Below, piece by piece: positions 82 through 11,951 of a DNA stretch of 11,951 bases. Every line of letters begins with the position of its first letter. The stretch's first letter is position 1. The position numbers and the translations under genes were made by a program. This DNA comes from Candidatus Thorarchaeota archaeon (GTDB taxonomy: Archaea > Asgardarchaeota > Thorarchaeia > Thorarchaeales > Thorarchaeaceae). The notes below the pieces were generated by a model. It saw only the letters and a program-made list of their open reading frames with translations, had not been told where the DNA came from and did not search any database. The DNA lies in the NCBI GenBank assembly GCA_029858305.1, contig JAOUFI010000070.1, positions 1 to 11,951 of the forward strand, read 5' to 3'.

Positions 82-675
82 CTAGTATCTGCGTCGACTG
101 TCGCCGCCACCGTAGCCGCCACCACTGCTTCTTCGGTCACGACCACCATAGCCGCTACTACCACCACGTCGGTCGCCACCGTAGCCGCCTTCGCTGTTTC
201 GACCACTATAGCCGCCACCGCCGCCACGACGATCTCCGCCGTAACCACCACTGCCGCCACTTCGACCGCCACCACCGTAGCTCCTACGTGGTCTATCGTC
301 TTCGTGCTCTTCAGCAGACATATCGACATCCATGTTGACTTCCTCGATGGCTTCTGCAGCCTGCTCGAGTTTGCCATATCTACCGACATTCAATCGTAAG
401 TTTCCTCGAAAGAGTCCAGTGTATCCATTTGTAAGATTGTAACTAGTTCCTTCCGTAATGTTATCAATAGCCTCATCCCAGAGCGGAACTTGAACAGTTC
501 CACTTGTATCACCAACAGTGATATCACAGACACGGTGAGATGTCCCATCACTGCGGGACTCAATCTCACGCTCTTCGCCCATGCTGATCACCTTGAAAGA
601 TATGGTGACATTCTTCATTCGTGGCTTTAGTTCTGCCACTGTAGCCTCAATTGGCTCACGTTCTTCATAACCCAT
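82..675 (-). CDS. ssb: Single-stranded DNA-binding protein, single OB fold (crenarchaeal SSB/hSSB1-like), with acidic linker and Gly/Arg/Tyr-rich disordered tail
   Basis: OB-fold pattern VAELKP..NVTISFKVI..HRVCDITVGDTSGTVQVPLWD..NGYTGLFRGNLRLNVGRYG; aromatics W66/Y85/F89 sit where base-stacking residues occur in Sulfolobus SSB; GAGTGA RBS upstream of ATG 675; TAG stop. Confidence 0.9.
   Translation of the reverse strand: MGYEEREPIEATVAELKPRMKNVTISFKVISMGEEREIESRSDGTSHRVCDITVGDTSGTVQVPLWDEAIDNITEGTSYNLTNGYTGLFRGNLRLNVGRYGKLEQAAEAIEEVNMDVDMSAEEHEDDRPRRSYGGGGRSGGSGGYGGDRRGGGGGYSGRNSEGGYGGDRRGGSSGYGGRDRRSSGGGYGGGDSRRRY
85..294 (-). repeat. Low-complexity coding repeat (GGYGG / GGYGGDRRGG units) in the SSB tail
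   Basis: GGYGGDRRGG occurs at aa 143-152 and 163-172; five YGG plus one YSG; recurring ccaccgtagc-type units in the DNA. Confidence 0.9.
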
Positions 676-904: not shown

Positions 905-1546
905 CTAATTCTTCTCATCTTTGAAATCGATTTTCTTATGGGAGTTGTCACAGAATGGTTTGTTCTTCGATCCTCCACAACGACAGAGAGTATAATGCTC
1001 CTTGGACTCAGGACGCGATTCCTGGTCATCGATTAGCTCAATCCAACCAACGAATTCAAGAGGCCCATTTTTGGCAATTTTTATTGCAGGTTCACGATTC
1101 AAGTCTTGAATTCGTTGAGTGCCAATCTTGTAGCTGAGTGAACCGGAGGGACATTTTTCAATGGTTTCGATGGTCTTTCGCACACTTCCATTATCAGGAA
1201 AGATCCACATAGGTTTCTTATCCTTTTGAAATACTTCCGGACTCTCCCTCACACAGGCACCATCAGCTGAACATACACCTCGGTTGTCAAGAATAGTTAT
1301 TTCCTTCCCTTTGAATTCAACAACTTTGTCTGGACGTCGGTCAGGTTCTTTCGCTCCTGAGAAATCAACTTTGGAATGTGAACCATCACAGTAAGGTTTG
1401 TCCTTCGAATGTCCACATCTACAGAGAGCTGTTACAGGTCCCATATCTATCTCTTTACCCTTAGAGTTGACACACTTTGGCGCACCAACTACCATGTATG
1501 GTCCATACAAATCAAAAACGACCATGGGCTTGTGGTTCTTATTCAT
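905..1546 (-). CDS. CDGSH iron-sulfur protein with CDGSH - divergent mono-cluster ferredoxin (Fer4_19/DUF1271-like) - CDGSH architecture
   Basis: LCRCGHSKDKPYCDGSH and LCRCGGSKNKPFCDNSH motifs, each preceded by a GPY/GPL strand; central CSADGAC...CPSG. Start moved from 1567 to ATG 1546 because a GAGCTGTGA RBS-like site precedes it and a TATA-like ATTAAAA lies at 1587-1581. Confidence 0.9.
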   Translation of the reverse strand: MNKNHKPMVVFDLYGPYMVVGAPKCVNSKGKEIDMGPVTALCRCGHSKDKPYCDGSHSKVDFSGAKEPDRRPDKVVEFKGKEITILDNRGVCSADGACVRESPEVFQKDKKPMWIFPDNGSVRKTIETIEKCPSGSLSYKIGTQRIQDLNREPAIKIAKNGPLEFVGWIELIDDQESRPESKEHYTLCRCGGSKNKPFCDNSHKKIDFKDEKN

Positions 1547-1580
1547 ATAATCACAGCTCTCATACATGGATGAGCCTGCA

Positions 1581-1956: not shown

Positions 1957-2949
1957 TTGAAGATTGGTATCATAGGCGCGGGAAATATGGGGCGTATCCA
2001 TGCTCGTATCCTCAATGACATGGGCGCCTTAGCTGGTATTGCAGACAAAGATATAGAAACAGCAATGAGTGTCGCTAAAACGTACGATGTACCAGCCTAT
2101 GAAAACTATGAAGAACTGATTGAGAATGTTCAGCCAATTGCACTAATCATCTCTACACCTACATCGTTACACGCATCAATTGCCAACCGAATAGCATCTA
2201 AGTATGACAACATTCGGGGATTGCTAATTGAAAAACCTCTAGCTAGTACTCTTGAAGATGGAAAGAAGGTAGCTGAAGTGGTCAAGAGGAAGGGAATCGT
2301 CACGCTGATATCACACTCAGAGATTTACAATCCGATTGTAACCAAGGCCTTGTCCCTCATCCAAACGGACGCTATTGGTGTTCCACGTACAGTGATCCAC
2401 GACCGCCGGGGTTTTGTAGAACCTTCAAGGATTGCTTCCCTTGGAGATGTATACGAAGATATTGGAGTACATGATTTTGATATCATGGCTCGTATTAGTC
2501 AAGGACCAGCAAGTCTGTTCGCCCGAAGTCACAAAGAGAGTGGAATCTATAATAGTGGTACTGTAATGGTCGATTTTGAAACCGGTGCACATCATATCTT
2601 CCATTTGTCGCGTCAATACACTGGTAGAAGAAGATACATGGATGTTTCAGGAACTAAAGGGTCATTAGTGCTTGACTTGTTTGGACAGATTATAAAGATA
2701 CAGAATCTTGATCAGGCACCAATGGCAGCAAGCGACACAATCAAACTCCCCGAGAGAGGTGCTACGATTAAAGTCTACGGAGAGCCCGTAAGAGAGGTGC
2801 TTAATGACTTCATTACCTGCGTAAAGACAGGGAGAACACCGAAGGTGAACATCGATGATGCACTCTCGGCACTTGAGATAGTTGAAGCAGCACGAGAAAG
2901 TACTAGGACAGGTAAAGTAGTCAATATAGAGGTCAAGCGAAGGAAATAA
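1957..2949 (+). CDS. Gfo/Idh/MocA family NAD(P)-dependent oxidoreductase (substrate unknown)
   Basis: N-terminal Rossmann motif KIGIIGAGNMG, STPT..H, LIEKPLA motif, catalytic DIGVHDFD; TTG start, with an in-frame TGA at 1939-1941 limiting any upstream extension. Confidence 0.92.
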   Translation: MKIGIIGAGNMGRIHARILNDMGALAGIADKDIETAMSVAKTYDVPAYENYEELIENVQPIALIISTPTSLHASIANRIASKYDNIRGLLIEKPLASTLEDGKKVAEVVKRKGIVTLISHSEIYNPIVTKALSLIQTDAIGVPRTVIHDRRGFVEPSRIASLGDVYEDIGVHDFDIMARISQGPASLFARSHKESGIYNSGTVMVDFETGAHHIFHLSRQYTGRRRYMDVSGTKGSLVLDLFGQIIKIQNLDQAPMAASDTIKLPERGATIKVYGEPVREVLNDFITCVKTGRTPKVNIDDALSALEIVEAARESTRTGKVVNIEVKRRK

Positions 2950-4228
2950 TCCTACCAAAGAGATGAGTTCGCGCCGCTTTCACCACTTGCAAGTTGACAA
3001 TAGAACCAAGATCTGCCTCTTCATGAACTATGATGGATTTGTATGACGAATTTCGACAGAGAAAACCGCTGCGAGACCCCCTCTCGGTCACGATAGCAGG
3101 ACCAGACCAGCCAATCCAAGTGTTGTTGTCCTCTAGAAGTATCCTATTCACAAGCATTGTGAGACGCCGACTTCGTTGTTTCTTTGTTGAGGTTTCTACC
3201 TTGTTCTTTGACTTGGATGCTTGTGTTCCAGGACGGTCACCATATTTTGAAATATTAACAACAGTGGGTCGGATTCTTCGAATAACATCGAGCGTGAGAT
3301 CAAAGTCATCCTTGGTTTCTCCGGGAAATCCAACAATGATATCCGTCGCAATGGTAGCATCATTGAAATTCTCTCTTATGGTTCTGATGATACTCTCCCA
3401 GTCTTCTACGGTGTACAATCGACCCATTGCTTTTAGGACTGAATCACTGCCAGACTGCAAGGGAATATGAAAGAACTTGAAGAAATGATCCGACTTCATT
3501 GTCTGAAGAAGTTCGCCAATAGATTCTGACACAAGATTAGGATTAAACATTCCAAGTCTAAACTTATGACGACCCTCTATCTCGTCGATTTTTTGTATCA
3601 ATGTTACAAGATTGCTGTCAATGTCAAAACCATACGCTCCAAGGTCTTGAGAGGTGATACGAATCTCACGGTATCCATCTCTTGTACACTTTTCAATGGC
3701 TTGACAGATTTCTCTCTCCAAATGGCTTTTTACCTGTCCTCTTGCAAACTTGACTGCGCAGTAGGAACAATTGCCCAGACAACCTTCACAGATTGGTATC
3801 GTACAAATGACACTCTCAGCCGGAGCCTCAAGCCATGTCAACTTGGATATATCCGTGGAGTCTAAATGACTGATACCTCTCGCACCGGCCAATATCTTAG
3901 GTACAATCTCAATCATAGATTCGATTGCCTGAGGCCCTAGAATAGCTGCATAGTTAGGAATTGCTTTTTCAATACGTGAGAGGGAGATTTTCGGAAGGCA
4001 TCCTGTCACAATTACTGGCTTGGTGCTCCCACTCAATTCTTCCAGTCTATGAATTATACGATCCTCGGTAGGTTCTTTCACTCCACATGTATTCAATATG
4101 ATAAGTTCTGCTTGTTCAAAACTCCCAACAGGCTGAGCATCAATCTCTCTCAATTTACCTATTATTATATCGGAATCAGCTGAATTAAGGGAACAGCCGT
4201 ATGTTTCCAAGTAGAATCGGATGGGCAT
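2933..4228 (-). CDS. mtaB: tRNA t6A37 methylthiotransferase, archaeal/eukaryotic MiaB-like type (e-MtaB/CDKAL1 family), radical SAM
   Basis: UPF0004 cysteines ETYGC, LNTC, VTGC; radical SAM CLGNCSYC; SQDLGAYG, RLGMFNP, HIPLQSGSD, ATDIIVGFPGET; C-terminal TRAM-like region. 3' end overlaps the convergent oxidoreductase by 17 bp. Confidence 0.88.
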   Translation of the reverse strand: MPIRFYLETYGCSLNSADSDIIIGKLREIDAQPVGSFEQAELIILNTCGVKEPTEDRIIHRLEELSGSTKPVIVTGCLPKISLSRIEKAIPNYAAILGPQAIESMIEIVPKILAGARGISHLDSTDISKLTWLEAPAESVICTIPICEGCLGNCSYCAVKFARGQVKSHLEREICQAIEKCTRDGYREIRITSQDLGAYGFDIDSNLVTLIQKIDEIEGRHKFRLGMFNPNLVSESIGELLQTMKSDHFFKFFHIPLQSGSDSVLKAMGRLYTVEDWESIIRTIRENFNDATIATDIIVGFPGETKDDFDLTLDVIRRIRPTVVNISKYGDRPGTQASKSKNKVETSTKKQRSRRLTMLVNRILLEDNNTWIGWSGPAIVTERGSRSGFLCRNSSYKSIIVHEEADLGSIVNLQVVKAARTHLFGRIISFA

Positions 4229-4551: not shown

Positions 4552-4938
4552 CTATTCAGCCTTTTGATAGTGCACTATCAGTTCTTTTACAAGCCAATTG
4601 ACAGCTTCAATGATGTTTTCTATGTCGCCTTTAGTTGCTTTATCATAATGAATTCCTGTCGTTACAACAACTGATCGTTGGAGCGCCTTGCAGATTTGCT
4701 CAGCTGCGGAATTCGCCACGAGGTAATCTTTGTGACCGGGAAACGTCAGAGTGCTCACGCTTACTGTTGTAGCATCTCTATAATGACTTCTGGTTTCATA
4801 TGCTACAGAAACTCCACCAAGATGGTGTTCGTCTCCACCATATATAGTGACTAGCAGGTCTTTGCCAATATCCTTGGCTTCAAGGAAGATGGAATGAGGA
4901 CCTACCTTTCTTTCGAGAATCATCAAACCACCATACAT
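4552..4938 (-). CDS. LpdD-like protein (prenylated-flavin chaperone LpdD / proteasome assembly chaperone-like fold)
   Basis: Pattern IGKDLLVTIYGGDEHHLGGV...PGHKD...VVVTTGIHYDKAT matches my recollection of the LpdD family (G-x-D..GG..HxG, GHK[D/E], GIH-x-D); GAGGT RBS before ATG 4938; alternative ATG at 4923. Confidence 0.7.
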   Translation of the reverse strand: MYGGLMILERKVGPHSIFLEAKDIGKDLLVTIYGGDEHHLGGVSVAYETRSHYRDATTVSVSTLTFPGHKDYLVANSAAEQICKALQRSVVVTTGIHYDKATKGDIENIIEAVNWLVKELIVHYQKAE

Positions 4939-4973: not shown

Positions 4974-6539
4974 CTATTCATTACCACCAGCAGCAAGTCT
5001 TTGCTGATACATCCTATAGGATAGAGTGAGGGTTTTTGGATGGGCAGACCTGTATTCATCTAAGCGTCGTACTGATGTTGAATGAGGTGCATTCCTAACC
5101 TTGTCCGGGTCCTCATGAGCCTCTCTTGAAATCTGACGAAGTGCTTCAATAAAGTAGTCAAGCTCCTGTTTCGATTCTGTTTCTGTTGGCTCAATCATTA
5201 ATGCTTCTGGGACAATAAGCGGAAAATATACAGTAGGAGCGTGCACTCCAAAATCCAAGAGCCGTTTTGCAACATTCATTGCAGTCACCCCGGTCGATTC
5301 TTTCAGCTCTTCCGCAGAGATGACGCATTCGTGCATACGTGGTGCATCCTGAGAGAATGGTAGTGTGAATCCTGAAATCTTTCTAACATGATGAGCGATA
5401 TAATTCGCGTTGAGCACAGCCACCTCAGAGGCTCTTTTGAGACCCTCTCTACCAAGTGAGTAGATGTATGCGTATGCTCTAACCAGTACCCCAAAGTTGC
5501 CATAGAAAGATTTCACCTTGCCAATGGATCTGGGTCGATTATAATCTAAATCAAATGAACCGGTTTCTGTTTTGATGATACGAGGAACTGGCAAGAATTC
5601 GGCAAGTTTGTCTTTCACCCCTACTGGACCTGCTCCAGGACCTCCACCACCATGTGGCGTTGAGAATGTCTTGTGAAGGTTGAGGTGCACAACATCAAAG
5701 CCCATGTCACCAGGACGCACTTTGTGCATAATTGCATTGAAGTTCGCCCCATCATAGTACACAAGGCCACCGGCGTCATGAACGATATCGGTAATCTCAC
5801 CTATATCCTTCTCAAAAACACCGATAGTATTGGGGTTCGTAAGCATTAGGCCGGCAGTTTTGGGTCCCGCCGCCTCCTTCAGAGCTTCTATGTTTACTAG
5901 CCCTTCCCTACTAGAAGGAATCACAACCACATTGTAACCAGCCATGGCAGCTGAGGCGGGGTTCGTTCCATGCGCAGCATCAGGTATCAGCATTTCATTT
6001 CTCTGATCACATTCCTGCGTTATGCATCGATGATACTCACGCATCATCATCACACCAGTCCACTCACCCTGGGCTCCTGCTGCAGGTTGAAGTGTTACCG
6101 CATCCATGCCTGTTATTTCACCCAACCATTGCTCAAGCTCCCACATCAACTCAAGGGCACCTTGAGTTGTAGAAACATCCTGTAGTGGATGAAGCCATGA
6201 AAAACCAAGCTGTGAGGCCGCCCAGTTATTCTGTTCAGGATTATACTTCATGGTACAACTTCCTAGAGGATAAGTACCAAGGCTGACTGCGTAATTCATC
6301 TGAGATAGTCTTGTGAAGTGTCGCACAACAGCGGGCTCAGAAACCTCAGGAATCTTTGGAGGTGTTTTTCTCCGCATTGCCTTTGGTAGAGTATTTCGTA
6401 CATCTTGGACCTTACGTATTTCTTCCTCAGCTACAGGAAACTTATGAGCAATCACTCCAGGATTCGAACGTTCAAAAAGAAGGGGCTCGATCCACTTTGC
6501 TTGTCGCATTCTAGATTCGATTGGGTGTTGGTCGCTCAT
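4974..6539 (-). CDS. gcvPB: Glycine dehydrogenase (decarboxylating) subunit 2, glycine cleavage P-protein beta
   Basis: YPLGSCTMKYNP, LQPAAGAQGE, AHGTNPASA, MLTNPNT, YYDGANFNA, PLP-lysine motif HLNLHKTFSTPHGGGGPG, HAPTVYFP, MIEPTETE; ATGA overlap with gcvPA at 6536-6539. Confidence 0.97.
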   Translation of the reverse strand: MSDQHPIESRMRQAKWIEPLLFERSNPGVIAHKFPVAEEEIRKVQDVRNTLPKAMRRKTPPKIPEVSEPAVVRHFTRLSQMNYAVSLGTYPLGSCTMKYNPEQNNWAASQLGFSWLHPLQDVSTTQGALELMWELEQWLGEITGMDAVTLQPAAGAQGEWTGVMMMREYHRCITQECDQRNEMLIPDAAHGTNPASAAMAGYNVVVIPSSREGLVNIEALKEAAGPKTAGLMLTNPNTIGVFEKDIGEITDIVHDAGGLVYYDGANFNAIMHKVRPGDMGFDVVHLNLHKTFSTPHGGGGPGAGPVGVKDKLAEFLPVPRIIKTETGSFDLDYNRPRSIGKVKSFYGNFGVLVRAYAYIYSLGREGLKRASEVAVLNANYIAHHVRKISGFTLPFSQDAPRMHECVISAEELKESTGVTAMNVAKRLLDFGVHAPTVYFPLIVPEALMIEPTETESKQELDYFIEALRQISREAHEDPDKVRNAPHSTSVRRLDEYRSAHPKTLTLSYRMYQQRLAAGGNE

Positions 6540-7942
6540 TGGCGCGCACCTCCTGTTGTAACAATCTCTTCGACTGATTTGACAAGTCTATCAATAGATT
6601 TCTGGCTGTGCATCTCTGATACGCAGAACAACATCGACTCACCCATCTCTGGAAATTCATCGGTCAGTATTTTTCCTCCCTGAATTCCCAGTTTTAGAAG
6701 GCCATCATGAACTTGCTTTGCCGTGATACCGCTCTCAAATTGCACAACAAACTCTTTCCAAATGAACTCGCCAAGTGCCGGGCTTCTTACTCCACTAATC
6801 TTGCCAAGTCGATTTGCAGCATAATTTGATTTTAGTGAAATAGTTTCTCCAAGACTTTCCAATCCTGTTGGACCAAGGACTGACATATAGACTGCTGCAG
6901 TCACCGCAGCAAGTGCCTGATTTGAACAAATATTACTTGTCGCTTTCTCTCTACGTATGTGCTGTTCTCGGGGACTGAGGGTCAGAACATAACCGTTCTC
7001 GTACGGTTCTTCCTCAGTTCGGGTCATCCCAACAAGACGACCTGGCATTTGGTATATCAGTTTGCGGTCATTCTTGCATCCGAAGATACCAAGTAAGGGG
7101 CCACCATAGCTCATAGGAGAACCAAGATGTTGCCCTTCAGCAACTACGATGTCAGCATCGTATTCACCAGGAGGACGCATGACTCCAAGGGAGAGAATAT
7201 CAACCCCTACTACAAACAGGGCACCCTTTTCATGTACCAGTTTCGCAATTTCATCTACTTGTGTCTCAATGAAACCTAGATGACTCGGGTTTTCAATATA
7301 AACACCTGCAACCTTGTCACTCATCTTAGCTTCTAAATCCGAAAGAATCATGAGGCCAGTCTCTTTATCGAAATCAACTTTGATTACATCGATGCCAGCA
7401 GGCTCGGTATATGTGTGAATCACCTGGTAATGCTCTGGATTTATTGAGCCAGGCACAAGGAATGTAGAACGGTTCTTATTCACACGCGTTGTCATCCGAG
7501 CTGCTTCTGCTACAGCTGTTGCCATGTCGTACATTGATGAGTTTACTACATCTATCTGGAGAATCTCGGACAACAGACTTTGATATTCAAACAATGTCTG
7601 TAGCATACCCTGACTGATTTCAGCCTGGTAACTAGTATACGACGTGACAAATTCTGACCTCCCGGCTAATGCTGGAACTATAGCAGGAATGTAATGCATG
7701 CCCACTCCAGAACCAAGAAAGACATCGCCATCAGAAGCAGATACATTCCTATCTGCAAGCTCCTGAATTCTTCGTATGACTTCGAGTTCAGTATGAGACT
7801 CGGGAAGATCAAGTTCATTCTTTACTCTGAATTTGTCAGGGATATTACAGAACAAATCTTCTAGATTTTTCTTACCAATAGACGCAAGCATTTCTTCTTC
7901 TGTAGCCTTTGTAATTGGGATCCATGGATGTTTGTATTCCAT
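6536..7942 (-). CDS. gcvPA: Glycine dehydrogenase (decarboxylating) subunit 1, glycine cleavage P-protein alpha
   Basis: FLGSG, TSYTSYQAEISQGMLQTLFEYQS, NSSMYD, SYGGP, MPGRLVG, REQHIRREKATSNICSNQAL. Start reassigned from 8056 to ATG 7942 (MEYKHPWIP, GGAG RBS upstream), where the family N-terminus begins. Confidence 0.95.
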   Translation of the reverse strand: MEYKHPWIPITKATEEEMLASIGKKNLEDLFCNIPDKFRVKNELDLPESHTELEVIRRIQELADRNVSASDGDVFLGSGVGMHYIPAIVPALAGRSEFVTSYTSYQAEISQGMLQTLFEYQSLLSEILQIDVVNSSMYDMATAVAEAARMTTRVNKNRSTFLVPGSINPEHYQVIHTYTEPAGIDVIKVDFDKETGLMILSDLEAKMSDKVAGVYIENPSHLGFIETQVDEIAKLVHEKGALFVVGVDILSLGVMRPPGEYDADIVVAEGQHLGSPMSYGGPLLGIFGCKNDRKLIYQMPGRLVGMTRTEEEPYENGYVLTLSPREQHIRREKATSNICSNQALAAVTAAVYMSVLGPTGLESLGETISLKSNYAANRLGKISGVRSPALGEFIWKEFVVQFESGITAKQVHDGLLKLGIQGGKILTDEFPEMGESMLFCVSEMHSQKSIDRLVKSVEEIVTTGGARQ

Positions 7943-7973
7943 CGCACTCTTCTCCGATTGGGCCCTTGGTCTG

Positions 7974-8034
7974 CTGGCAAGTCTTCTTACCCAAATAGCT
8001 TTTGGGTGAGGCGATTTCAAATAGCTCCTGCCAG
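7974..8034. promoter_or_regulatory. Nested inverted and direct repeats in the divergent gcvPA/trm112 intergenic region
   Basis: CTGGCA(7974-7979)/TGCCAG(8029-8034); ACCCAAA(7989-7995)/TTTGGGT(8001-8007); direct repeat CAAATAGCT at 7992-8000 and 8018-8026. Confidence 0.45.
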
Positions 8035-8088
8035 AATGTTTTTTACGATAATACACAAATCGACGCTCATCATAGGAGTGACATCATA

Positions 8089-8506: not shown

Positions 8507-9373
8507 TTATTCCTTTTCAGCAATACTTAATGCATCGTCAGGTTGTGCCATCTCAACCCTGAATAGTCGCTTGACGTGAGACAGCACAAGACGGTCTCCG
8601 TTGACCTCGACATCAATGTCGATATAGTCCTTGAGTCCGGAGGTGGACAGCTTCTTTTCAAGAATTGCCTGAACTTGGAAGACTCCTGCAGGGTTTGCCA
8701 TCGCCACGGTGATCTGAAGCGGGATTGATTTGCTCTTGGATAAAGTGACATTCTCGATGGCCATAGCACTCACCGAATGAATATCGACCTTGCCTTGCTG
8801 GAATGGGACCGTAGTTCGGCCTTTTGTCATGTCGCACCCATCACCAATTTTAGTTATTCCAGCTTCTAGAGTGAGACACTGTGTATCATCATCATGGGCA
8901 TAGATGCCATGATAAATGAAAGAGAGAATATCCGTTGCCTTTCCCGGGTCACCATAGATATTGTCAAGTTTGGACTCTAGAATCTCATTTGCAAGCTGGA
9001 CTGCAGCCTGATTATGCTCATTTCTGTGAACAACCATCCCGATGTCGTGTAGATAGGTTGATGCTAGCACAATGAGGCGCGCATCATCAACATCACCAAT
9101 ACCCTCTGCAACCACATTTGGTTTGAAGGTGTCTTCAAGGATGTCAAATGCCTTTAGGGCATACCAAGTTGCCACTTCTGCATGAACTGGACCATGGTCA
9201 GTATAGCCTAGTCTGGATACAGCCATACGATTTGCACTCCGAAGATATGACTGCACCTTTGGCGATCCAGTCAGGTATTGATACATCTCAAGAGCCAGAG
9301 ACTCATCTTGGAGCAACTCTCTCGCTCTGATTGTCTGACGGTCAACAGATTCATGCTTGTTCATTGAAATCAC
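8507..9373 (-). CDS. HD-domain metal-dependent phosphohydrolase (function unknown)
   Basis: DHGPVH, YLHDIG, HRNEH, IYAHD, GDGCDMTKGR motifs of the HD superfamily; start is GTG 9373 or ATG 9364; TATA-like CATATAAT at 9435-9428. Confidence 0.88.
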   Translation of the reverse strand: MISMNKHESVDRQTIRARELLQDESLALEMYQYLTGSPKVQSYLRSANRMAVSRLGYTDHGPVHAEVATWYALKAFDILEDTFKPNVVAEGIGDVDDARLIVLASTYLHDIGMVVHRNEHNQAAVQLANEILESKLDNIYGDPGKATDILSFIYHGIYAHDDDTQCLTLEAGITKIGDGCDMTKGRTTVPFQQGKVDIHSVSAMAIENVTLSKSKSIPLQITVAMANPAGVFQVQAILEKKLSTSGLKDYIDIDVEVNGDRLVLSHVKRLFRVEMAQPDDALSIAEKE

Positions 9374-9454: not shown

Positions 9455-9489
9455 GAAATCTAGATAGACAAGACGTCTATCTAGACTTC
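9455..9489 (-). terminator. 15-bp hairpin overlapping the stop codon of the ribophorin fusion gene; candidate terminator/3' stabiliser
   Basis: TCTAGATAGAC(9459-9469)/GTCTATCTAGA(9475-9485) perfect 11 bp with a 5-nt loop; extends to 15 bp with one G-U pair on the - strand; followed by pyrimidine-rich ACTCTTTCTCC. Confidence 0.6.
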
Positions 9490-11951
9490 TCCAGCCTCTT
9501 CCTGTATTGAGAGGAGGATCCTATCAGTAGCACTAGTAGCCTTCTGGATCGTCTTCAGGTAATCTTGTCGTGACTTCTCAAAGGCCACGCGACTGATTCT
9601 CTGTTTCTTCTTTCTGAGAAGTAATTGACGAAGACCAGCTTTCGCACCTTCGATTCTTTCATCCTGAAGCTCTAGTTGAGCAATTAGGTCTCTGTACCTT
9701 GGACCATGGCGTGCAAGTTCCTCCTTCACGGATGGAAGCTTTGAATCTATCTCCTCAACCTGTTTCCTCAAATCGCCCTCGCGCATCATATACTCTCGCT
9801 TTTTGACCTTCCCTCTTCGTCTGGATGCATCAAGTTTTTCCAAATCAATATTGAGAGAGGTCTTTCTGGAGTAAAGATTGGCAAAGTTTGAAAGTAGTTC
9901 AGGAGGCGCTCCTAATTGCTTGACCTTGTAAGACTCGTCATAGTCCTCTGCATCGATACGTGCTCCAAGAGCTTCCTCAGGCACTTCCACTTTTCTGTAT
10001 GAAACATACAGAGCTGCAATGACTCCGACTATCAATGTAAAGAGAATTGGCCTAGCTGCAGCTCCGAGCGTGGTCTGGTAGACCAGAGAGATTTTTGCAG
10101 GATTCCTCTGGGTCTGATTGTGGAAGACATAACTATATGATGTATCGAACACACCATATCGTTTTATGTAACCCTCAGTTGCTTCGCTGGCATATACTGA
10201 CACTGGAAAAACGATGTCAATATTATGGGTGAAAACAAGGATATCACCTAACAAGGCTATAGGAACTTCTAATAGAACCCCACCAGGAGCCACGCCTTGG
10301 TAGGAACTTGTCTGAACTACATATGAAACCTTGAATGTGTATTTGAAGGATGGTTCTAATCCGTTCCCAAATCTATCGGTTGCCAGATTGATTTGAAGGG
10401 CTCTTGTTTCATTAAAATCCCCAATAGTAATCGCAGCCTGTGTCTGTGATGTGGCTAATGCTCCGACCTCATCAAAAATTTTGATGTTGGCAGAATATGC
10501 GGGTAGAGTCAGTGGAAGTTGATTGAGAGTGCTTCCACCGGTGTTTTCTAATGAGATAGTTTCCTCGTATGACAACCAACCCCACGCATCCACCGTGATT
10601 CTTGTTACACGACTTGCTATAATGTTCTGTGTGAATAATCGTAGACTAGCACTGAACACATTCTCTGTTAGGGGAGCAACATTTTGTTCCTGCAGATCGG
10701 GTACTTCTTCATTTGGAACAAGAGAGCCACCACCCTCAAAGGCGAGGGAGAACACAGCACGATTCTGTACGTAGGGGATTACTGGGTACCGTAGGAACTC
10801 GAGCTCGTACTCGAATTCGTTTGGAACTGTTAGATAAAATAGACTATGTAGATAGGTAATAGTTTTGAATGTAAATGATTCTTGGTATCGAATCGGATCC
10901 GAAAAATGTATTCTCCATCGTATCATTCCATTTGCATTTGTCAACCTAACAAAGAAAATATCATTGCCGGATGTATCTCTGGCTACGAATTCAAGAAGAT
11001 TGGATTCATATTTTTCTGGGAAGTAGATATCCATTGCGTTGATTGGGACAGAACCATTATTCTTTACAATGTAGGTATCCTCAGCTCTAGAGCCAAAGTT
11101 TGGTGTGACTATTAATGTACGAGTTGCATCCACACGCATGCCGAGAAGTGGGAAGAATGGTCTATCAATCTCGATATTGACATAGACAAGACCATCGGCA
11201 TCTGAAAGGTCTGTAGCATTGAATGTTATGACATGTGGACCTTCATCGTAGATTGATAGGTCAACAGAGCCAGTCCATAATAATGTCTTAAAGTCGTAGG
11301 ATAGACTGGCCCAAGATTCGTTATCTACTCGATAGGACGCGCGCCAGACAAAATCATTGGTTGCGTTAAGCTTCAACAAAGCTACCCAATCAATTATTGC
11401 ACCCGCTTCAGGACTTAGCACGACCATAGTAGGAGGCTTGTTAGGCAACACCTTGACCATTACTGGTTCGTTCCAGTATGTGTGTTGTGTAGGAAGACCA
11501 TTGAGTTCTTCACTTGAGCCGTACATGAAAACAAAAGGAAATATCATATCTGTGCTGTTGAATAATGGGATGTCATTGAAATCGGTGCTGTTCATTTGAA
11601 TGACGTATTCCAACTGTGTGATTGTACCGTTGTCAGATCCATCAGCTGATAGAATCTGAGTCTGATTTGAATCAGGTAAATGTTGGAATGTGCTCGTTCC
11701 ATGCTCGTCACTGTATACAATTTGGCTTGAGCTAGCAGGATTGATGGTTCTAGATACTCCTGATCTATAGATGCGTTGCAAAGTGATTGTATAGATGAGA
11801 TCCTGTCCATAAAGCTCATGGCCTTTGGTGTTGTACGCTTGAGTAGCAGGAATAATGAAATGGCGTACCTCGCCGATTCGCATTCCAATGATTGCATCTT
11901 TGTACATTTGAAGGGCTGACAGACTCTCGACAGGCTCAATCGATCCGATAT
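9481..11951 (-). CDS. Ribophorin I (RPN1/OST1)-like membrane protein with N-terminal FKBP-like, DOMON-like and Ig-like domains; N-terminus lies outside the window
   Basis: The frame stays open from ATG 11907 to the window edge (IGSIEPVESLSALQ-MYKD). TRITVDAWGWLSYEETISLENTG and IFDEVGALATS parallel the eukaryotic RPN1 motifs RxIEVSHWGNIAVEE and YRDEIGNxSTS; single TM helix ILFTLIVGVIAALYVSY (about 10047-9997); charged helical cytoplasmic tail. Confidence 0.8.
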   Translation of the reverse strand, partial: IGSIEPVESLSALQMYKDAIIGMRIGEVRHFIIPATQAYNTKGHELYGQDLIYTITLQRIYRSGVSRTINPASSSQIVYSDEHGTSTFQHLPDSNQTQILSADGSDNGTITQLEYVIQMNSTDFNDIPLFNSTDMIFPFVFMYGSSEELNGLPTQHTYWNEPVMVKVLPNKPPTMVVLSPEAGAIIDWVALLKLNATNDFVWRASYRVDNESWASLSYDFKTLLWTGSVDLSIYDEGPHVITFNATDLSDADGLVYVNIEIDRPFFPLLGMRVDATRTLIVTPNFGSRAEDTYIVKNNGSVPINAMDIYFPEKYESNLLEFVARDTSGNDIFFVRLTNANGMIRWRIHFSDPIRYQESFTFKTITYLHSLFYLTVPNEFEYELEFLRYPVIPYVQNRAVFSLAFEGGGSLVPNEEVPDLQEQNVAPLTENVFSASLRLFTQNIIASRVTRITVDAWGWLSYEETISLENTGGSTLNQLPLTLPAYSANIKIFDEVGALATSQTQAAITIGDFNETRALQINLATDRFGNGLEPSFKYTFKVSYVVQTSSYQGVAPGGVLLEVPIALLGDILVFTHNIDIVFPVSVYASEATEGYIKRYGVFDTSYSYVFHNQTQRNPAKISLVYQTTLGAAARPILFTLIVGVIAALYVSYRKVEVPEEALGARIDAEDYDESYKVKQLGAPPELLSNFANLYSRKTSLNIDLEKLDASRRRGKVKKREYMMREGDLRKQVEEIDSKLPSVKEELARHGPRYRDLIAQLELQDERIEGAKAGLRQLLLRKKKQRISRVAFEKSRQDYLKTIQKATSATDRILLSIQEEAGEV

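Follow-up and report, generated by a model that had tools for sequence, protein, structure and literature searches.

The DNA analysed here, hereafter the window, is a whole contig of 11,951 bases (G000:C81) from a Thorarchaeota-type Asgard archaeon. On its minus strand, positions 9481..11949 form one open reading frame (ORF) of 822 codons that runs off the contig end and leaves the 5′ end open. The frame is this archaeon's only OST1/ribophorin I, the oligosaccharyltransferase (OST) subunit that is one of the eukaryote-signature proteins of Asgard archaea; neither PF04597 nor P0003 found a second OST1 in the genome (G000, 88.9% complete). P0003 is a protein of 971 amino acids on record from a single 17.6-kb contig, and residue numbers below refer to it. 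Its domain order is signal peptide, DOMON domain with a nested FKBP domain, immunoglobulin (Ig) domain, two OST1 sandwiches, transmembrane (TM) helix and cytoplasmic four-helix bundle. A head of ~390 residues thus lies between the signal peptide and the OST1 body. The window encodes the following parts:

11755..11951, minus strand: C-terminal two thirds of the FKBP domain (P0003 150-214; Pfam FKBP_C), the first third lying on contig C140 (L003)
11440..11754, minus strand: second half of the DOMON-type β-sandwich (P0003 215-319), the first half preceding the FKBP domain, on C140
11158..11439, minus strand: Ig-like domain of the Big_7 type (P0003 320-413)
10633..11157, minus strand: OST1/ribophorin I extracellular β-sandwich 1 (P0003 414-588; modelled with local confidence of about 88-92)
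10072..10632, minus strand: OST1/ribophorin I β-sandwich 2 (P0003 589-775)
9994..10071, minus strand: single TM helix, then R/K (P0003 776-801; hydrophobic core 782-800, model helix 777-800)
9913..9993, minus strand: acidic linker of low model confidence (P0003 802-828; local confidence <50; 0 invariant columns in 27 positions)
9481..9912, minus strand: cytoplasmic four-helix bundle and stop codon (P0003 829-971)

Translation confirmed these coordinates. A preliminary description of this DNA had proposed one continuous ORF with much the same order of parts, and its boundaries agree with ours to within about 12 bases.

The gene is completed by contig C140. The last 127 bases of the window (11825-11951) recur at the end of C140 (L003 8482-8608) with 100% identity, which looks like an assembly k-mer overlap splitting the gene inside the FKBP domain. 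The C140 frame at L003:7965-8606 adds 214 residues, comprising a hydrophobic signal-like N-terminus, a β-rich segment and a match to positions 5-72 of the 94 in Pfam FKBP_C (PF00254). C140 thus encodes the signal peptide together with DOMON half 1 and the N-terminal two thirds of the FKBP domain. The FKBP-like part that had been recognized in the window (11755-11949) matches FKBP_C positions 49-93 at 22.5 bits (cut-off 21.1), and so the two pieces complete one FKBP domain; in the full protein the match covers positions 5-93 of 94 at 35.1 bits.

Merging C140 residues 25-214 with the entire window ORF gives P0003, letter for letter, and relatives start with the same signal-like segment in frames of 993-998 amino acids. 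By these sequence comparisons the full protein, now retrieved through C140 and P0003 as the preliminary description had proposed, is about 994 amino acids long. C140 supplies the ~170 N-terminal residues, and the start codon is probably the TTG at L003:7965. Logan contigs from two runs (X1 and X2) extend beyond the window end and show no mismatching tail; should X1 be the source sample itself, which is possible, its support would not be independent. The break at the window end is evidently an assembly gap and not the gene's terminus. One metatranscriptome run from sediment (X24) has three short contigs that fall on the gene, at 9678-9929 (identical over 252 bases), 10358-10543 and 11228-11455. 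We take them as a weak hint of expression, as contigs from an RNA library are no proof of transcription.

To characterize the body of the protein, we used a full-length model built from 39 orthologues, with a mean predicted local distance difference test score (pLDDT) of 75.7, about 88-92 over residues 420-735, and a predicted template modelling score (pTM) of 0.41. The top eight Protein Data Bank (PDB) matches returned by Foldseek were all RPN1/Ost1 chains, among them human 8b6l_O (E 1.1e-26) and 6s7o_E (8.7e-22) and yeast 8agb_E, 7oci_A, 6ezn_A (7.9e-18) and 6c26_1 (the yeast chains between 6e-19 and 9e-16). The first match of another kind was an integrin at 4e-12. With VIA-align, seven of the chains reached Z 27.4-29.2 and the eighth (6c26_1) Z 24.9, over 358-475 aligned residues. 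These alignments begin at model residue 412-418, matching RPN1/Ost1 residue 25-29, which agrees with the earlier statement that eukaryotic RPN1 has no such N-terminal domains. They span the TM helix to model residue 804-814, and those to RPN1 reach 959-964.

Each OST1 sandwich also matches the N-domain of LTA4H/ERAP1 (Z 10.3-11.6), and the two are therefore repeats of one fold. The tail aligns to 8WHN, the cytoplasmic domain of MK-D1 OST1, over 141 of 142 residues (VIA-align; Z 17.8, root-mean-square deviation (rmsd) 1.9 Å), and the sequence profile matches 8whn_A in the PDB at E 3.8e-6. Sequence and model both give a type I membrane topology, with an N-terminal signal-like segment and a single TM helix. 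In the model, P0003 residues 414-971 make up a complete OST1/ribophorin I, with two β-sandwiches, a TM helix and a cytosolic four-helix bundle. The two ribophorin I repeats, TM helix and helical tail named in the preliminary description are thus recovered, at Z 27-29 to human RPN1 and yeast Ost1. Pfam Ribophorin_I (PF04597) aligns to the second sandwich through profile positions 250-354 of 437, at 21.5 bits for the window piece, 20.8 bits for the full protein and 15 bits in a genome-wide scan of G000; it matches 11/39 orthologues at E ≤ 0.01 (best 4e-8). Because the Pfam threshold is not reached, OST1 membership rests on fold, topology and tail.

For a separate model of the head we took the G362 orthologue, which shares 74% identity across the full protein, and an alignment of 46 sequences. 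This model has a mean pLDDT of 91.8 and a pTM of 0.85, and its fold was compared by alignment-free VIA search with 48,161 PDB representatives. Head-model residues ~3-92 and ~190-294 together align to the DOMON superfamily, skipping the FKBP domain, with 140-174 residues aligned. The matches include ethylbenzene dehydrogenase gamma (2ivf_C; Z 15.8, 168 residues, rmsd 2.8 Å), NxrC (7b04_C; Z 14.6), the dopamine beta-hydroxylase DOMON domain (4zel_B; Z 13.3), the cytochrome domains of PDH (6jt6_A; Z 12.5) and CDH (1d7c_A; Z 12.2), and CBM9 (1i82_A; Z 12.1). The intervening residues 94-189 align to FKBPs (SlyD, Z 12.7; FKBP13, Z 11.8; FKBP2, Z 11.6; FKBP11 in 9YGY, Z 11.0), and FKBP_C is matched in 39/39 orthologues. 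As modelled, a complete FKBP domain is an insertion inside the DOMON-type sandwich. The preliminary description had placed the FKBP domain before a DOMON-like segment at 11724-11446. The DOMON fold of that segment stands (Z 15.8 and 13.3), the segment being only the second half of the sandwich; the order does not, since the FKBP domain is nested within it. Residues 297-388 form the Ig-like domain that had also been proposed, matching 6tn6 at Z 13.7-13.8 and rmsd 1.6-1.9 Å, with 89 residues aligned at Z 13.7 and rmsd 1.6 Å.

The DOMON relationship of the P0003 head is visible by fold and not by profile search of the PDB, in which the best 60 of 147 rows hold no DOMON chain and FKBPs only (trigger factor included). 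With the head model, Foldseek returned generic Ig and adhesin matches at E ≥ 8e-6 and NxrC weakly (7b04_O, rank 18). Searching a representative library with the head profile was swamped by multi-Ig proteins, with 11 head-type matches among the 150 rows listed, and this search therefore says little on distant DOMON-FKBP relatives. We note that one library protein, P0263 (602 amino acids), contains a pair of Pfam DOMON domains (E 2.6e-16) alongside a bacterial TSP3 repeat; the head profile matches it via the DOMON halves only, and at the sequence level it links the Thorarchaeal sandwich to Pfam DOMON. No informative NCBIfam name was obtained for P0003 (BamJ, 22.6 bits against a cut-off of 100).

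We compared the FKBP pocket via alignments to FKBP2 and wheat FKBP73, counting residues over the 39 orthologues and using FKBP12 position numbers. Four tyrosines at pocket-equivalent positions, Tyr132, Tyr165, Tyr188 and Tyr202, are invariant (39/39). The equivalents of Tyr26 and Tyr82 are Tyr in all 39 orthologues, as are those of Trp59 and Phe99. Judged by its residues, the pocket is conserved but non-canonical, and binding by it appears likely.

Mean pairwise identity among the 39 orthologues, computed for each part, is 0.70 for the first DOMON half, 0.64 for the FKBP domain, 0.63 for the second DOMON half, 0.51 for the Ig domain, and 0.50 and 0.52 for OST1 sandwiches 1 and 2. The values for the DOMON and FKBP parts of the head (0.63-0.70) exceed those for the OST1 sandwiches (0.50-0.52), and constraint on the head is therefore no weaker than on the OST1 core. 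Conservation peaks in the cytoplasmic bundle (0.81; 61/143 columns invariant). The ectodomain carries 16 N-X-S/T sequons compared to 7.9 ± 2.5 in shuffles, and the tail carries 0.

To see how far the fusion extends, we surveyed 400 Asgard genomes, including the window's family (f1, 85 other genomes) and a sister family of the same order (f2, 1 genome). P0003 as query matched in 355/400 genomes. Within f1, 82 of the 85 other genomes match, 13 of these as pieces at contig ends, and 69 carry an uninterrupted gene from residue ≤23 to ≥969 in frames of 981-1233 amino acids. The f2 genome has a 1034-residue frame that matches residues 26-969 at 35% identity. In the other 31 families, all 56 matches listed start at P0003 residue ≥419, in frames of 301-638 amino acids (a further 247 matches exist). 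Among the matches listed, these families have a plain OST1, typically of 570-640 amino acids and matching residues ~420-970. At E ≤ 1e-15, the head profile matches 80/85 genomes of f1, 1/1 of f2 and 2/12 of f10, the f10 matches being limited to the FKBP part, in 214- and 246-residue frames; it matches 0/301 genomes of 30 further families. As far as these sequences go, the head is a conserved feature of this order and, among the 400 Asgard genomes, is confined to it.

The head also occurs without OST1. Free paralogues were found in 2/86 genomes of the order, G318 (L008:3534-5321; 595 amino acids) and G337 (L009:3130-4890), in frames of 598 and 586 amino acids; none was found in G000. In these proteins a signal peptide and the head (DOMON with nested FKBP, then Ig) lead into an additional Ig/PKD-like domain, a stalk rich in Ser and Thr, and a TM helix at the C-terminus. 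Of 120 relatives listed from the protein database, 115 have lengths of 920-996 amino acids; the relatives mostly bear Thorarchaeota labels and are called, where a source name is present, FKBP-type peptidyl-prolyl cis-trans isomerase, Ig-like domain-containing protein or hypothetical. Two individual genomes deserve mention. The orthologue at G387:C47:57148-59985 (minus strand) lies in a frame of 1233 amino acids, about 240 longer than elsewhere, which could be an N-terminal extension or a stop-free upstream stretch. G320, though assembled in one contig, gave no OST1 or head match with the protein or either profile; loss, a gap or masked sequence is possible.

The remaining genes of the window are all on the same strand:

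8507..9373, minus strand: 288-residue gene downstream of OST1 with a weak HD match (Pfam HD, E 4.5e-4, below cut-off)
4974-8056, minus strand: split glycine-cleavage P subunits
4552-4938, minus strand: PAC_bac proteasome-assembly-chaperone-like protein (E 2.3e-33)
2933-4228, minus strand: MiaB-like radical SAM enzyme
905-1567, minus strand: CDGSH plus 4Fe-4S protein
82-675, minus strand: Ssb-like OB-fold protein

The gene order around OST1 is TopoVI-B, TopoVI-A, a divergent GT4 gene, OST1, the weak HD-domain gene and two glycine-cleavage P subunits. It is the same in four family genomes (G344, G362, G368 and G313; the G344 contig ends at OST1, and its upstream genes are unseen), and the sister family (G311) shares the GT4/OST1/HD trio. 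The GT4 gene lies divergently upstream of OST1 on C140 (L003:6744-7781, minus strand). Its 345-residue product matches Glycos_transf_4 at E 2.3e-28 and belongs to the MraY/WecA/Alg7 superfamily but falls far short of the NCBIfam cut-offs for MraY. We infer that it is AglH/Alg7-like and a candidate enzyme for initiating N-glycan lipid-carrier synthesis. The HD-like gene stands directly downstream of OST1 in all five of these genomes and has no NCBIfam family match; we regard it as a conserved neighbour only, with no functional link implied. On contig C50, an OST3/OST6-like frame of 158 amino acids (G000:C50:44553-44870; profile positions 182-287 of 294) is found some 3.5 kb upstream of a 554-residue frame (G000:C50:48425-49660), the genome's single STT3/AglB match. 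The STT3 frame comes within about 280 bases of the locus end, and the contig end may truncate it. According to PMC10307638, Asgard archaea have known homologues of Ost1 and Ost3, and within this group RPN2 and OST48 are reported for Heimdallarchaeia only.

We propose, with a probability of roughly 0.6, that the protein is an OST1 with an FKBP-DOMON head, presenting a chaperone or ligand-binding device at the nascent-chain exit from a ribosome-docked OST subunit. By analogy, the OST1 body would act as in eukaryotes and as proposed for MK-D1, as a non-catalytic subunit with AglB/STT3 beside the SecY channel. The basic four-helix bundle of the tail would dock the translating ribosome, and the head would hang outside the membrane where nascent chains emerge. 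There, the four-tyrosine FKBP pocket may hold or chaperone unfolded segments, as a binder and possibly a prolyl isomerase, while the DOMON sandwich would offer a second ligand site and the Ig domain would serve as a spacer. The tail of MK-D1 OST1 is a four-helix bundle that pulls down human ribosomes (PMC11417166). For human FKBP11, PMC12804085 describes a small TM FKBP with a ribosome-binding basic helix, which together with CCDC134 sits beside OST-A at the translocon. One Thorarchaeal chain would combine what human cells assemble separately by recruiting FKBP11 beside OST-A.

Several observations weigh against this proposal. The contacts with AglB, SecY and the ribosome are argued from analogy, not from experiment or model, and the full-length pTM of 0.41 means that the placement of the head relative to OST1 is not predicted. 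Of the folds named in the preliminary description, ribophorin I and FKBP were both found; the Ribophorin_I scores of P0003 and the window ORF lie below the curated cut-off of 25 bits. At E ≤ 0.01, P0003 has no match to Pfam DOMON (PF03351), which matches 8/39 orthologues (best 4.7e-5), or to Pfam Big_7 (PF17957), which matches 13/39 (best 6.4e-11). The OST1 gene is not adjacent to STT3 or OST3/6, both of which are on C50. Three f1 genomes gave no match with P0003 or the 39-sequence profile (G320, 86% complete and in one contig; G327, 60%; G380, 62%). A few fusion records are labelled Sifarchaeia, Promethearchaeota, Hodarchaeota or Lokiarchaeota by their submitters; these are 46-63% identical to P0003, inside the family's own range.

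The pocket and the FKBP11 parallel also count on this side. In addition to the Tyr at the Trp59 position, the equivalent of Asp37 is Gln in 38/39 orthologues, that of Arg42 is Pro in 39/39 and that of Phe46 is Ser in 39/39 (FKBP12 numbering). Because the pocket has diverged from canonical FKBPs, peptidyl-prolyl isomerase (PPIase) activity of the head appears doubtful. In PMC12804085, the catalytic site of FKBP11 is buried in the translocon, the authors favour an adaptor or shielding role and oppose a nascent-chain isomerase role, and the knockout is described as having no glycosylation defect. By analogy, then, the FKBP11 parallel would make a link between folding and glycosylation reasonable, yet it also cautions against one.

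The strongest competing explanation, which we regard as unlikely while giving it real weight, keeps the OST1 assignment and makes the head a binder of a glycan, a lipid-linked oligosaccharide, an envelope component or haem, the FKBP domain being a non-catalytic insert or docking surface. The closest relatives of the sandwich bind ligands: haem-b subunits (2ivf_C, Z 15.8; 7b04_C, Z 14.6), the CDH cytochrome (Z 12.2) and CBM9 (Z 12.1). The DOMON halves are among the best conserved extracellular parts (0.70 and 0.63), the catalytic-site equivalents of the FKBP domain have diverged, and the same head is found on surface-anchored paralogues without OST1 in 2/86 genomes of the order. The pocket of FKBP11 is moreover covered by a partner in the human translocon (PMC12804085). 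Within the sandwich, however, no conserved pair of haem ligands could be assigned, nor a sugar site. H43, H214, M266 and H280 (head model) are near-invariant in the orthologues and variable in the paralogues and the sister family, and once these are counted no Met, His or Lys position in the DOMON halves is invariant. The four pocket tyrosines, invariant in 39/39, also suggest that the FKBP pocket is used.

A bolder form of our proposal would make the head a working co-translational folding and ligand-checking station outside the archaeal SecY-AglB translocon, a one-chain counterpart, and possibly a relative, of FKBP11/OST-A and the FKBPs of the endoplasmic reticulum (ER). In such a station the OST1 tail would dock the ribosome, AglB would add glycans, and the inbuilt FKBP and DOMON parts would deal with the chain as it comes out. 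We consider this improbable. If true, it would mean that the coupling of a folding helper to N-glycosylation arose within Asgard archaea, before the ER.

A further alternative, to which we attach only a small probability, is a translocon protein independent of oligosaccharyltransferase, in which the OST1 body would be a ribosome-tethered anchor for a secretion chaperone and AglB would act alone. In its favour, AglB of archaea generally works as a lone subunit, the OST1 gene forms no cluster with STT3 or OST3/6, and the cytoplasmic bundle, rather than the OST1 sandwiches, is most conserved. Against this, the whole OST1 body is retained at Z 27-29, and with it the TM helix that makes partner contacts in eukaryotic OST; the genome keeps an OST3/6-like gene near STT3; and the conserved divergent neighbour belongs to the GT4 family, which starts N-glycan assembly.

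Finally, although a contig end interrupts the gene within its FKBP domain, we reject an assembly artefact or chimeric contig as having practically no probability: the 127-base C140 overlap is identical, the joined pieces equal the 971-residue protein from one 17.6-kb contig, X1 (possibly the source sample) and X2 pass the window end without a mismatching tail, and the fusion is kept uninterrupted in 69 of 85 related genomes with the same neighbourhood, and is therefore not a misassembly, which settles the question that the preliminary description had left to a survey of Asgard genomes.

We found no published description of an OST1 + FKBP-in-DOMON fusion in the literature, where supplementary tables might list such accessions. 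Asgard OST1 itself is already known, and these proteins sit in public databases under other names; annotations such as "FKBP-type peptidyl-prolyl cis-trans isomerase" or "hypothetical" hide the OST1 of a whole order. An order-wide, strongly conserved fusion of this kind can be read as a Rosetta stone, suggesting that selection in at least one lineage of Asgard archaea has had a ribosome-docked OST subunit bring a chaperone or ligand-binding device to the secretion exit. The soluble head of ~390 residues and the tail of ~140 residues make the link between translocation, glycosylation and folding testable.

Among known systems, OST1 of 'Ca. Prometheoarchaeum syntrophicum' MK-D1 (607 amino acids) shares the signal peptide, the two extracellular sandwiches, the TM helix and the four-helix bundle, whereas the Thorarchaeal protein has about 390 extra residues, the DOMON domain with nested FKBP domain and then the Ig domain. 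The measured ribosome binding is that of MK-D1 OST1 (PMC11417166). Human RPN1 (8B6L chain O, 6S7O chain E) aligns through residues 28-607 to model residues 416-964 (Z 29.2), and mammalian RPN1 likewise has a cytosolic helical bundle. Yeast Ost1 (6EZN chain A, 8AGB chain E) aligns through residues 25-474 to model residues 412-808 (Z 27.4-27.6). Sequence identity to RPN1/Ost1 is just 11-17%, and the eukaryotic proteins begin at the first sandwich, with no head.

The sandwich has the same fold as its DOMON relatives (2IVF chain C, 7B04, 4ZEL, 1D7C and 1I82; Z 12.1-15.8) but is interrupted by the FKBP domain. With FKBP11 (9YGY) the protein shares a non-cytosolic FKBP domain and would share a position beside OST and a tie to the ribosome through a basic cytosolic element, and the FKBP domains superimpose at Z 11.0 and rmsd 1.9 Å (9ygy_A). 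ER-type FKBPs (FKBP2, FKBP14 and FKBP11) are among the sequence matches of the Thorarchaeal FKBP domain. The likeness is not evidence of common descent, as SlyD (Z 12.7) and wheat FKBP73 (E 1.7e-11) score equally well. FKBP11 is a small TM protein of its own whose recruitment is dynamic, whereas the Thorarchaeal FKBP domain is covalently part of OST1, inside a DOMON sandwich. The fusion lends itself naturally to comparison with the human FKBP11/CCDC134/OST-A translocon, which was described only recently.

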